Origin: Escherichia coli | GTDB taxonomy: Bacteria; Pseudomonadota; Gammaproteobacteria; Enterobacterales; Enterobacteriaceae | Assembly (NCBI RefSeq): GCF_003334305.1 | Contig: NZ_QOWS01000043.1 | Strand: one strand, 5' to 3' | DNA length: 10,116 nt | In this document: positions 256 to 5,334 of the stretch, piece by piece | How the letters are laid out: the number at the start of each line of letters is the position of its first letter | How positions within the stretch are numbered: the stretch's first letter is position 1 | Position numbers and translations under genes: made by a program | Notes under the pieces: generated by a model | The model's database searches: none | Seen by the model: the letters and a program-made list of their open reading frames with translations, nothing else | Told to the model about the DNA's origin: nothing

Positions 256-1095
256 TTAATACACTTCATCCAGCACGTTAATTTTCAAAAGATCGCGAAT
301 CAACGTATTTTTATCGCTATTTTGCAGCCATATGGCATAAAGCGGCCGTGAAAGTGTTGTGCTATCGACAACGGTATGCAGGCCGCCTTTTTTACGCGCC
401 CAGCTGACGGGTAGCCAGGTGCAACCATTAAGCATCGCAATCTGTTGCTGTGCCAGTTCAGCAGAACTGGTTGTCAGAATGGGCACTTCGTCAGCACCGA
501 TCAAACCTGCCTCATGCTGTTGAAAATCTGGCCCCCACTCAAGTCGCAGATAATTAAGATCTCCCTTTAGTTTTGAAGGGGCACTGGTATAAAGCGCTAA
601 AGTGAAATATCCCAGCAACTGACTACTAAATTCGTCCATTTTGGGCGCTTCAGTGGTAATAAGAAGATCAAGCTGGCGTTCATGCAGCTGTTTTACCAGA
701 GACTGCCGTTGGGCAATTCGCGCTTCGAACTGTAAGCCTGTATGGGCATCCTGATTTTGATACAAACGTCCCAGCCACTGATTAAGCATACATTCCCACA
801 ATGAGGCGCTGGCACCGATAGAAAACTCGTTATGTCGTGAGGTATGCGCCACCTCCTTGCGGGCGGCCTGCCAGGTGCTCATGAGCGTTTCTGCATAAGG
901 CAGTAGTTTTTCACCGGCAGCGGTTAAACGGATATTGTTTCTGTGGCGGGTGAAAAGGTTCACACCCAGTTGATTTTCCAGTTGTCTGATTCGAAAGCTC
1001 ACTGCTGACTGGGTCAGATAGAGCGATTCAGCCGCTCGACCAAAGTGACGCGTTCGGCTAACTTCCAGGAAAGTTTTTAACAATTCCGTATCCAC
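256..1095 (-). CDS. hdfR: LysR-family transcriptional regulator HdfR (279 aa), GTG start
   Basis: 279-aa ORF with an N-terminal LysR-type helix-turn-helix ([16 protein letters not shown]) and a C-terminal substrate-binding-like domain. The sequence matches HdfR/YifA as recalled. The first codon is GTG (plus-strand cac at 1093-1095), preceded on the coding strand by GGAGAG, an appropriately spaced Shine-Dalgarno. Position between the tRNAs and maoP/comM matches known synteny. Confidence 0.85.
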
Positions 1096-1162
1096 AGTGC
1101 TCTCCGCAAAATTATTTGTCGTTATGATTTAAATGTTTTGTTTTACACTCTGTCAAGCGTAA

Positions 1163-1213: not shown

Positions 1214-1552
1214 ATGGCGGAAAGCTTTACGACGACTAATCGATATTTCGACAATAAACATTATCCACGTGGATTCTCTCGTCATGGTGATTTCACCATC
1301 AAAGAGGCACAACTGCTTGAGCGTCATGGTTATGCCTTCAATGAGTTGGATCTTGGCAAACGCGAGCCGGTTACCGAGGAAGAGAAACTCTTCGTAGCAG
1401 TATGCCGTGGCGAACGTGAGCCAGTGACAGAAGCAGAACGCGTGTGGTCCAAGTATATGACGCGTATTAAGCGTCCAAAACGTTTTCACACCCTTTCCGG
1501 CGGTAAACCGCAGGTTGAAGGTGCTGAAGACTACACCGATTCTGATGATTAA
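1214..1552 (+). CDS. maoP: MaoP / YifE (DUF413 family, macrodomain Ori protein), 112 aa
   Basis: 112-aa ORF with ATG start at 1214 and an AGGAG Shine-Dalgarno at 1201-1205 (8-nt spacer). Sequence [42 protein letters not shown] matches YifE as recalled. Divergent from hdfR, convergent with comM. Confidence 0.85.
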
Positions 1553-1576: not shown

Positions 1577-3097
1577 TTATGTCAGTAGTTTTTGCAGATG
1601 GATGAGCAAACGGTCAATCGCACGATAGCTAACTGCCTCCTGCAAATGCTGACGTGTGATAATGTCAGACTGATCAATATCAGCAATGGTTCGTGCAACT
1701 TTCAATAACCGCTGCCAGGCACGAATCGATAACCCCAGATGGATCAGTGTTCCTTCCAACCACATCGCATCTTCGCTCTCAAGTTTGCAGAATTGGCGTA
1801 TTTCCGGACTATCCAGCCAGGCATTCAGTTTATTCTGCCGCTTAAATTGGCGCTCTCTGGCGGCCATTACGCGTTGTTTAACGGTGGCGCTGCTTTCTCC
1901 CGGCACTACCGTTTTACTCAAAATGCCGGGGGGTGGTAATGGGATCTCCAGTGAGAGATCGAAGCGGTCGAGAAAGGGCCCCGAGAGCCGGTTGAGATAA
2001 CGTAATGTCTGTTCTGGCGTGCAGCGGTTATGGTTTCCCTGATAATGTCCGGTAGGGCTGGGATTCATCGCCGCAACAAGCTGGAAACGGGCTGGATAGG
2101 TTATTTTGGCTCGTGTGCGTGAAAGATGGATCTGCCCGGATTCAATCGGCTCTCGCAAGGCATCCAGTGTACGCCGTTCAAATTCAGGTAGCTCATCAAG
2201 AAAAAGCACGCCGTTATGCGCCAACGAAATTTCACCTGGCCCTGGAATTGCACCACCGCCCACCATCGCAGTTAACGACGCACTGTGATGCGGTGAGCGG
2301 AACGGGCGCTGCCGCCATTGTTTTTGTACTGATTCAGCATTTACCAGACTTAATATCGCAGCGCTCTCCAGTGCCTCTTCATTGCTTAAATCTGGCAACA
2401 GGCCATTAATACGGCTGGCGAGCATTGTTTTACCTGTTCCCGGCGGCCCAATCAGTAAAAGGTTGTGCCCGCCAGCGGCGGTAATTTCCAGTCCTCGCTT
2501 TCCTTGCTCCTGACCGACAACATCACTGAGATCATGTTGTAGCGCCCGGGATACTGCATCAGTTGGTTTCGGGCGTTCGAGAGCGTGCTTACCTTCCAGA
2601 AACGCACAGACAGCCTGCAGATGATCGGCTATCAGGCATCCTTCACCGTTAATTAGCCCCACTTCATCTTCGTTATCTTTCGCGACGATAATTTTTCTGC
2701 CCGACTTAATAGCTTCAGTTGCACTGGAGATTGCGCCGGGAACGCCACGCAGAGCGCCTGTAAGCGCCAGTTCTCCGACTAATTCATATTCATCTAACTT
2801 ATTGGCTGTAAGCTGTTCTGAGGCCGCCAGCAACGCAATGGCGATAGGTAAATCATATCGTCCCCCTTCTTTTGGCAGATCGGCTGGAGCCAGGTTGATG
2901 GTGATTTTTTTCGCCGGATATTCATATCCGCTATTGATAATGGCGCTGCGCACGCGATCGCGAGCTTCTTTTACAGTTGTTTCTGGTAAGCCCACCATCG
3001 TTAAGCCGGGTAGACCTTTACTGATATGTACCTCAACAGTGATTGGGGGCGCATTTACTCCCAGGGCTGCGCGGGTATGAACAATTGACAGTGACAT
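1577..3097 (-). CDS. comM: ComM / YifB, Mg-chelatase-like AAA+ ATPase (competence protein ComM homolog), 506 aa from the downstream ATG
   Basis: Long minus-strand ORF with Walker A (LLLIGPPGTGKTM) and Walker B (VLFLDELPEF) motifs and an N-terminal Lon-protease-like region. The six-frame track starts at the ATG at 3127 (516 aa), but the in-frame ATG at 3095-3097 is preceded on the coding strand by AAGGAGGG with about a 4-nt spacer, a near-consensus Shine-Dalgarno. It gives the 506-aa product beginning MSLSIVHTRA, which matches my recollection of YifB. Confidence 0.85.
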   Translation of the reverse strand: MSLSIVHTRAALGVNAPPITVEVHISKGLPGLTMVGLPETTVKEARDRVRSAIINSGYEYPAKKITINLAPADLPKEGGRYDLPIAIALLAASEQLTANKLDEYELVGELALTGALRGVPGAISSATEAIKSGRKIIVAKDNEDEVGLINGEGCLIADHLQAVCAFLEGKHALERPKPTDAVSRALQHDLSDVVGQEQGKRGLEITAAGGHNLLLIGPPGTGKTMLASRINGLLPDLSNEEALESAAILSLVNAESVQKQWRQRPFRSPHHSASLTAMVGGGAIPGPGEISLAHNGVLFLDELPEFERRTLDALREPIESGQIHLSRTRAKITYPARFQLVAAMNPSPTGHYQGNHNRCTPEQTLRYLNRLSGPFLDRFDLSLEIPLPPPGILSKTVVPGESSATVKQRVMAARERQFKRQNKLNAWLDSPEIRQFCKLESEDAMWLEGTLIHLGLSIRAWQRLLKVARTIADIDQSDIITRQHLQEAVSYRAIDRLLIHLQKLLT

Positions 3098-3304
3098 AAG
3101 CCCTCCTTGAGTCACTATTATGTGCATAAGATATCGCTGCTGTAGCCCGCTAATTCGTGAATTTTAGTGGCTGATTCCTGTTTATTTGTGCAAGTGAAGT
3201 TGAGTTGTTCTGGCGGTGGAATGATGCTCGCAAAAATGCAGCGGACAAAGGATGAACTACGAGGAAGGGAACAACATTCATACTGAAATTGAATTTTTTT
3301 CACT

Positions 3305-3687: not shown

Positions 3688-5334
3688 ATGAATGGCGCAC
3701 AGTGGGTGGTACATGCGTTGCGGGCACAGGGTGTGAACACCGTTTTCGGTTATCCGGGTGGCGCAATTATGCCGGTTTACGATGCATTGTATGACGGCGG
3801 CGTGGAGCACTTGCTGTGCCGACATGAGCAGGGTGCGGCAATGGCGGCTATCGGTTATGCCCGTGCTACCGGCAAAACTGGCGTATGTATCGCCACGTCT
3901 GGTCCGGGCGCAACCAACCTGATAACCGGGCTTGCGGACGCACTGTTAGATTCTATCCCTGTTGTTGCCATCACCGGTCAAGTGTCCGCACCGTTTATCG
4001 GCACGGACGCATTTCAGGAAGTGGATGTCCTGGGATTGTCGTTAGCCTGTACCAAGCACAGCTTTCTGGTGCAGTCGCTGGAAGAGTTGCCGCGCATTAT
4101 GGCTGAAGCATTCGACGTTGCCAGCTCAGGTCGTCCTGGTCCGGTTCTGGTCGATATCCCAAAAGATATCCAGCTAGCCAGCGGTGACCTGGAACCGTGG
4201 TTCACCACCGTTGAAAACGAAGTGACTTTCCCACATGCCGAAGTTGAGCAAGCGCGCCAGATGCTGGCAAAAGCGCAAAAACCGATGCTGTACGTTGGTG
4301 GTGGCGTGGGTATGGCGCAGGCAGTTCCTGCTTTACGAGAATTTCTCGCTACCACAAAAATGCCTGCCACCTGCACGCTGAAAGGGCTGGGCGCAGTTGA
4401 AGCAGATTATCCGTACTATCTGGGCATGCTGGGAATGCATGGCACCAAAGCGGCGAACTTCGCGGTGCAGGAGTGCGACTTGCTGATCGCCGTGGGTGCA
4501 CGTTTTGATGACCGGGTGACCGGCAAACTGAACACCTTCGCACCACACGCCAGTGTTATCCATATGGATATCGACCCGGCAGAAATGAACAAGCTGCGTC
4601 AGGCACATGTGGCATTACAAGGTGATTTAAATGCTCTGTTACCAGCATTACAGCAGCCGTTAAATATCAATGACTGGCAGCTACACTGCGCGCAGCTGCG
4701 TGATGAACATGCCTGGCGTTACGACCATCCCGGTGACGCTATCTACGCGCCATTGTTGTTAAAACAACTGTCGGATCGTAAACCTGCGGATTGCGTCGTG
4801 ACCACAGATGTGGGGCAGCACCAGATGTGGGCCGCGCAGCACATCGCACACACTCGCCCGGAAAATTTCATTACCTCCAGCGGCTTAGGCACCATGGGTT
4901 TCGGTTTACCAGCGGCGGTTGGCGCACAAGTCGCACGACCGAACGATACTGTCGTCTGTATCTCCGGTGACGGCTCTTTCATGATGAATGTGCAAGAGCT
5001 GGGCACCGTAAAACGCAAGCAGTTACCGTTGAAAATCGTCTTACTCGATAACCAACGGTTAGGGATGGTTCGACAATGGCAGCAACTGTTTTTTCAGGAA
5101 CGATACAGCGAAACCACCCTTACTGATAACCCCGATTTCCTCATGTTAGCCAGCGCCTTCGGCATCCCTGGCCAACACATCACCCGTAAAGACCAGGTTG
5201 AAGCGGCACTCGACACCATGCTGAACAGTGATGGGCCATACCTGCTTCATGTCTCAATCGACGAACTTGAGAACGTCTGGCCGCTGGTGCCGCCTGGCGC
5301 CAGTAATTCAGAAATGTTGGAGAAATTATCATGA
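3688..5334 (+). CDS. ilvG: Acetolactate synthase II (AHAS II) large catalytic subunit, intact 548 aa
   Basis: Uninterrupted 548-aa ORF starting [25 protein letters not shown] with a thiamine-diphosphate binding motif ([14 protein letters not shown]...LDN). GGGGA Shine-Dalgarno-like sequence 8 nt upstream. Followed by ilvM with a 4-nt overlap. Confidence 0.95.

Follow-up and report, generated by a model that had tools for sequence, protein, structure and literature searches.

The hdfR gene of Escherichia coli very probably has a single genuine initiation codon, the GTG at 1095..1093 on the minus strand of the window (the whole stretch of 10,116 nucleotides that was analysed), as judged from species comparison and annotation. 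That hdfR starts with GTG is already known, since RefSeq annotates the start and two papers name the codon: Valens et al. 2016 (PMC5023128) give it in the legend to S2 Fig, and a 2019 Salmonella paper in NAR (PMC6735912) names it as well. The point added here is that related bacteria also keep a non-ATG hdfR start. Taken alone the GTG start matters little; control of HdfR dosage by the start codon is a hypothesis that can be tested cheaply, and the practical value lies in annotation, where the comparison provides a rule for placing the hdfR start in other genera.

Genomic setting of hdfR

The window is the rrnC-end / hdfR / maoP / yifB / ilv region of E. coli, with these features in and around hdfR:

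85-160: cut tRNA-Asp together with tRNA-Trp
167-188: terminator hairpin
256..1095, minus strand: hdfR coding sequence, 279 codons plus stop (ORF list, RefSeq and NCBIfam NF002946)
910..1086, minus strand: LysR-type HTH_1 DNA-binding domain, codons 4-62 (Pfam PF00126, model positions 2-60 of 60, E 1.8e-21)
1214..1552: 112-codon ORF divergent from hdfR (maoP)

Beyond maoP lie a minus-strand ORF of 516 codons and, after it, large ORFs on the plus strand. NCBIfam identifies the neighbours of hdfR in the window as the PRK11027 family (RefSeq name MaoP), YifB, the acetolactate synthase 2 catalytic subunit, IlvD and IlvA. The hdfR product belongs to the HdfR orthologue group (NCBIfam NF002946 / PRK03601), with a score of 534.6 bits against a cutoff of 240, and its residues 1-277 align end to end with positions 1-274 of the 275 in the NF002946 profile. 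At 279 aa (the group ranges over about 280-320 aa) it has the LysR-type domain architecture, in which HTH_1 (PF00126) is accompanied by LysR_substrate (PF03466; residues 87-270, E 3.3e-12). The gene context is likewise that of the orthologues, with hdfR divergent from maoP/yifE (DUF413) and yifB beyond, an arrangement which recurs in distant lineages.

A 1101-base query over the hdfR start matched 5426 of 5426 complete E. coli genomes. The same stretch is 100% identical in strain E2865 and 99.6% identical in K-12 MG1655, and the matched features are hdfR and maoP. The matches occupy 5432 places in the 5426 genomes, and a few E. coli have two hdfR-maoP copies, one of them plasmid-borne. The ilvG gene of K-12 carries a frameshift. 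In the window ilvG (3688-5334, plus strand) is an intact ORF of 548 codons that matches the profile of the acetolactate synthase 2 catalytic subunit end to end, which is consistent with the window being closest to a non-K-12 strain. For yifB/comM, the longest ORF (1577-3127, minus strand) has 516 codons; its residue 11, the second ATG (MSLSIVH...), is where both the NCBIfam profile for YifB and the 506-aa RefSeq CDS start.

Assignment of the initiation codon

On the coding strand the sequence around the start reads ...AAATAATTTTGCGGAGAGCACT GTG GAT ACG GAA TTG TTA..., and the longer upstream stretch is TTTTGCGGAGAGCACT. The plus strand has agtg (CACT) at 1096-1099 and ctctcc (GGAGAG) at 1100-1105. 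The initiation region comprises the following features:

1093..1095, minus strand: assigned hdfR initiation codon GTG (plus-strand CAC), from the sequence, the ORF list, the RefSeq CDS boundary and the species comparison
1096..1101, minus strand: 6-nt spacer AGCACT from the GGAG core to the GTG, sharing the last two bases of GGAGAG
1100..1105, minus strand: Shine-Dalgarno sequence GGAGAG, with the core GGAG at 1102-1105 (-10..-7), kept in 80 of 80 species
1106..1128, minus strand: A/U-rich leader upstream of the Shine-Dalgarno sequence, ATAACGACAAATAATTTTGC, nearly invariant between species
1129..1131, minus strand: in-frame TAA 12 codons 5' of the GTG, bounding any N-terminal extension

The first-pass annotation had taken GTG (plus-strand cac, 1093-1095) as the first codon of the 279-aa HdfR ORF, a reading with which RefSeq and the two papers agree, and had placed GGAGAG upstream of it on the coding strand, where it is indeed found at 1100-1105. 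The GGAG at -10..-7 has the properties of a Shine-Dalgarno sequence, being complementary to the 16S 3' end and lying 6 nt upstream, within the usual 5-9 nt, and the anti-Shine-Dalgarno duplex of the hdfR GTG (-6.6 kcal/mol) is the best among the candidate starts from -60 to +260. Between the TAA (1131..1129) and the GTG the frame reads ATC ATA ACG ACA AAT AAT TTT GCG GAG AGC ACT, and none of these 11 codons is ATG, GTG or TTG. In both MG1655 and E2865 the start boundary of the RefSeq CDS is identical to the GTG of the window. The earlier annotation had also proposed an alignment of HdfR N-termini, and its outcome agrees with the GTG: position 1 of the NCBIfam HdfR equivalog profile falls on residue 1, and residue 1 is aligned to residue 1 in about 130 of the best 150 representative homologues (a manual count, from a search of 1.84 billion proteins). 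The N-termini of distant relatives follow M-D-[TISV]-[ED]-L-L-[KR]-T-F. No hdfR entries were present in the searchable N-terminomics and Ribo-seq supplements (TRAINSPOTTER and the Salmonella riboproteogenomics paper).

Masking of the ribosome-binding site by RNA structure was considered and rejected. In a fold of -30..+50 the GGAGAG pairs with CUUUCC (+22..+27, codons 8-9) at a minimum free energy of -11.5 kcal/mol, with a z score of +0.92 and 164 of 200 shuffles folding equally well. In most species the Shine-Dalgarno region is GGAGAA, which would break one pair of the predicted hairpin.

The species comparison covered 80 Enterobacteriaceae species with one genome each, and its counts are of related genomes and hence are not probabilities. 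The hdfR start codon is GTG in 79 of these species, TTG in one (Silvania confinis) and ATG in none. Within E. coli, a 61-mer centred on the start is identical in 5389 of 5426 genomes, and an ATG-edited version of it has no exact match in any of the 5426. Upstream of the GTG conservation is flat by phase (0.97/0.96/0.94), and from the GTG on it is codon-periodic (0.96/1.00/0.68 at positions 1/2/3). The valine codons 32, 45 and 82 drift among GTG, GTA, GTC and GTT and are GTG in only 25-46 of the 80 species, whereas none of GTA, GTC and GTT occurs at codon 1 in the 80 species or in 12 distant lineages; codon 1 is therefore constrained as an initiation codon and not as a valine codon. Signal geometry, family alignment, E. 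coli population data, the species comparison and these internal codons are five independent lines that agree on the GTG. A start-type triplet is kept at the homologous position and its synonymous alternatives are excluded, the pattern that marks GUG initiation. The 12 distant lineages were found via 50%-identity cluster representatives, most of them with a divergent DUF413/maoP neighbour, and their homologous codon is GTG in six (Providencia, Plesiomonas and four others), TTG in three and ATG in three. No position other than a start codon would be expected to show a triplet that is always of start type while the choice varies among three. The three lineages with ATG indicate that a non-ATG hdfR start is not obligatory.

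Downstream of the GTG the frame contains the start-type codons TTG 5 (1083), GTG 32 (1002), GTG 45 (963), ATG 72 (882) and GTG 82 (852). The candidates (ALTERNATIVES) considered against the hdfR GTG were codons 5, 45 and 72 and the codon four positions upstream. The downstream ones are:

1081..1083, minus strand: TTG codon 5, the sole nearby alternative, rejected, with GGAG 18 nt upstream
961..963, minus strand: GTG codon 45, a Met in PDB chain 6wn5_A, not a conserved start
880..882, minus strand: ATG codon 72, the first in-frame ATG, 3' of the HTH domain

Translation from the TTG at codon 5 (1083..1081) would give a 275-residue protein which keeps nearly the whole HTH, losing HTH_1 model positions 1-2 only; TTG is a usable start, and codon 5 is TTG in 75 of the 80 species. 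However, a GGAG 18 nt away is too distant for Shine-Dalgarno-led placement, and the anti-Shine-Dalgarno energy of codon 5 is -3.1 kcal/mol against -6.6 kcal/mol for the GTG, a value that depends on borrowing the GGAG of the GTG. Five of the 80 species have TTA at codon 5, and 11 of the 12 distant lineages have TTA, CTT or CTA there, so it behaves like any other leucine codon. Moreover, Asp2-Thr3-Glu4 is kept as protein and the family profiles start at residue 1. Initiation at codon 5 is thus exceedingly improbable. It is also very improbable that the functional or a major product comes from GTG 32, GTG 45 or ATG 72, which would leave the upstream 44-71 codons as a leader and the protein without its DNA-binding domain. 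The first-pass annotation had stated that no in-frame ATG near the N-terminus would spare the HTH, and this is borne out, as the first ATG is codon 72 while HTH_1 spans residues 4-62, so that a start there would remove the entire HTH. ATG 72 is unchanged in 80 of 80 species, but it is Ile or Leu (ATC/ATA/TTG/CTG/TTA/CTA) in 10 of the 12 distant lineages. In PDB 6wn5 ('Transcriptional regulator HdfR', 232 residues) a Met is aligned to Val45, and some annotation or construct may have begun there; however, codons 32 and 45 drift among GTN (codon 45 is GTG in 46 species, GTA in 16, GTT in 13 and GTC in five), and distant lineages have Thr, Ala, Lys or Ser at codon 45. Codons 1-62 encode a complete HTH_1 domain with coding-type periodic conservation from codon 1 on, the Shine-Dalgarno scores of codons 32, 45 and 72 are poor (+0.7, -3.3 and +0.2 kcal/mol), and purified full-length HdfR binds DNA and complements according to the literature. 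A minor internal HdfR isoform may exist. The Met at Val45 in 6wn5, the only solved HdfR structure, suggests a truncated ORF model or construct beginning at the internal GTG, without the HTH.

Initiation at the GTG at 1095..1093 can be pictured from these data. It is established that fMet-tRNA decodes GUG and that GUG is weaker than AUG as a start. The 30S subunit would be positioned by the GGAG at -10..-7, and the near-cognate GUG would be read by the initiator fMet-tRNA. The predicted product is full-length: a LysR-type regulator of 279 residues with the N-terminus fMet-Asp-Thr-Glu-Leu-Leu, whose winged-helix DNA-binding domain starts at residue 3-4. Initiation would presumably be less efficient than at an AUG, so a weak GUG may cap HdfR synthesis, and this cap could be the reason that Enterobacteriaceae keep GTG or TTG and never ATG.

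Conservation of the non-ATG start and of its surroundings

It is possible, though on balance doubtful, that selection preserves the non-ATG hdfR start throughout Enterobacteriaceae because it caps HdfR synthesis, as in lacI. A G-to-A change to ATG would leave the protein unchanged, and it was never seen in the 80 species, the sole change being to TTG. Selection for a weak start is suggested by this absence of ATG, given the saturation of synonymous A/G sites: 23 of 23 such sites, all in conserved Lys, Glu or Gln codons, carry both purines, and among four-fold sites (81-sequence alignment) the E. coli base is kept in at least n-1 species at 1 of 46. The other reading accepts GTG as the start but takes its conservation to be uninformative on expression, the codon being carried along by the hdfR-maoP control region (maoS and the overlapping divergent promoters) or held by a constraint on the first codons; this is rather unlikely. 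In its favour, about 95% of the 118-bp intergenic region does not vary among the 80 species, a much higher share than at synonymous sites, codons 2-4 (GAT ACG GAA) are invariant even synonymously, and the maoP ATG is just as invariant as the hdfR GTG, start codons being slow-evolving in general. However, the 6 nt directly 5' of the GTG, which form the spacer to the GGAG, are the most variable stretch of the intergenic region, with 26 hexamers among the 80 species, which indicates that DNA constraint is not continuous across the start site. Also weighing against hitchhiking are the distance of maoS (68-84 bp from the GTG), the direction of the only observed change, again to a weak start, and the absence of the protein-neutral ATG beside saturated A/G sites. 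As both the intergenic DNA and codons 2-4 are so invariant, GTG conservation could nevertheless owe something to an unrecognised constraint acting on the DNA or RNA.

If selection does hold the weak start, a single G-to-A change to ATG would overproduce HdfR, at a cost exerted via flhDC (motility), gltBD or std fimbrial bistability, and the tuning of the initiation region would extend to the invariant codons 2-4. These codons (1084-1092) are invariant in the 80 species including their synonymous positions, with GAC at codon 4 in one species, and the third base of ACG (codon 3) is the sole never-changing site among the 46 four-fold sites of hdfR. Positions +4..+12 of the initiation region are accordingly under extra constraint.

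The intergenic region itself (1096-1213, 118 bp) stays about 95% invariant across the 80 Enterobacteriaceae species while hdfR synonymous sites are saturated. The 17-bp maoS site CTAATACTCCGCGCCAT was published by Valens 2016 (PMC5023128); in the window it lies at 1163-1179, and conservation reaches well past it. A strict sigma-70 scan gave no hdfR-strand promoter. On that strand a perfect TTGACA (1156..1151) is followed by 17 nt and then TTTAAA. As TTTAAA falls outside the strict -10 rules, the length of the hdfR 5'UTR is an estimate, and from the position of the TTGACA the A/U-rich leader at 1106..1128 would be transcribed as part of it. The maoP strand has TTTACA-N17-AATACT at 1142-1170, whose -10 overlaps maoS.

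Comparison with published hdfR genes and known weak starts

The hdfR (yifA) gene of E. coli K-12 and Salmonella enterica is, as published, the same gene with identical RefSeq CDS boundaries. From the K-12 gene there is no substantial difference, the window being 100% identical to E2865 instead of to K-12. The Salmonella paper reports DNA binding by HdfR-His6, which was also able to complement an hdfR mutation, and HdfR autoregulation was one of its subjects (PMC6735912). HdfR-His6 binds the gltBD and std promoters (literature, including PMC6735912). A link to OmrA/B was dropped, as the paper concerned names HdfR solely as flhDC repressor.

The Salmonella gene differs in having an extra in-frame GTG four codons upstream, where E. 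coli has GCG. This codon -4 (-12..-10; window 1105-1107) overlaps the Shine-Dalgarno sequence. E. coli shares GCG at this codon with 42 other species, while 28 species (Salmonella among them) have GTG and nine (the Citrobacter freundii group) have ATG, so that 37 of the 80 species have GTG or ATG there. These triplets account for the split Salmonella annotations, with 282 aa in one model and MDTELL at 278 aa in the other. With GCG at codon -4, the question of an upstream start does not arise for the window; an upstream in-frame start was rejected, there being none in E. coli, while elsewhere it overlaps the Shine-Dalgarno sequence, has none of its own and was judged incidental. In Providencia (L083/L084, 1501-1509) gene callers picked an ATG which abuts the GGAG with zero spacing and lies two codons upstream of a GTG having the E. 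coli geometry, and one 90%-identity Providencia cluster contains HdfR models of 279, 281, 283 and 285 aa. On the evidence of the alignments, probable mis-calls are the longer models of Salmonella and Citrobacter (282/281 aa) and of Providencia (281-285 aa), and likewise any model that begins at Val45.

GTG is the annotated start of about 14% of E. coli genes (Hecht et al., bioRxiv 10.1101/063800), so the hdfR GTG is real but not unusual. The first-pass annotation had linked non-ATG starts to lower translation efficiency, and the literature concurs, with GUG and UUG at 10-100% of AUG (Hecht et al., bioRxiv 10.1101/063800) or an 8-12-fold decrease as cited by Cherrak et al. 2024 (PMC11445065). 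Across the E. coli genome, start codon identity and abundance show no more than a borderline link (Belinky 2017), and start codons are generally slow to evolve according to the literature. A weak start fits the further suggestion that HdfR is a low-abundance regulator, in view of the literature and of the fact that ATG turned up in neither the 80 species nor the 5426 E. coli genomes.

In its signals the hdfR start resembles ordinary Shine-Dalgarno-led GUG initiation in E. coli, with the same GGAG 6 nt upstream, fMet-tRNA on GUG and an N-terminal Met, and no difference was detected. It differs from infC, where IF3 senses an AUU start, as hdfR gives no sign of a special mechanism. A close parallel is with lacI, and also with cra, mlc and rhaR (PMC11445065), in that a transcription-factor gene has a near-exclusive non-ATG start across genera; hdfR was not found in the text supplements of PMC11445065, which include part of the regulator tables. 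HdfR is a LysR-type and not a LacI/GalR-type regulator, and the effect of GTG versus ATG has been measured for lacI, in which an ATG allele raised the repressor level and lowered gut fitness (Cherrak et al. 2024, PMC11445065), whereas hdfR is known here from sequence comparison. Should selection on the hdfR start prove real, a weak start codon would set the dosage of HdfR too, placing hdfR beside lacI, cra and mlc.
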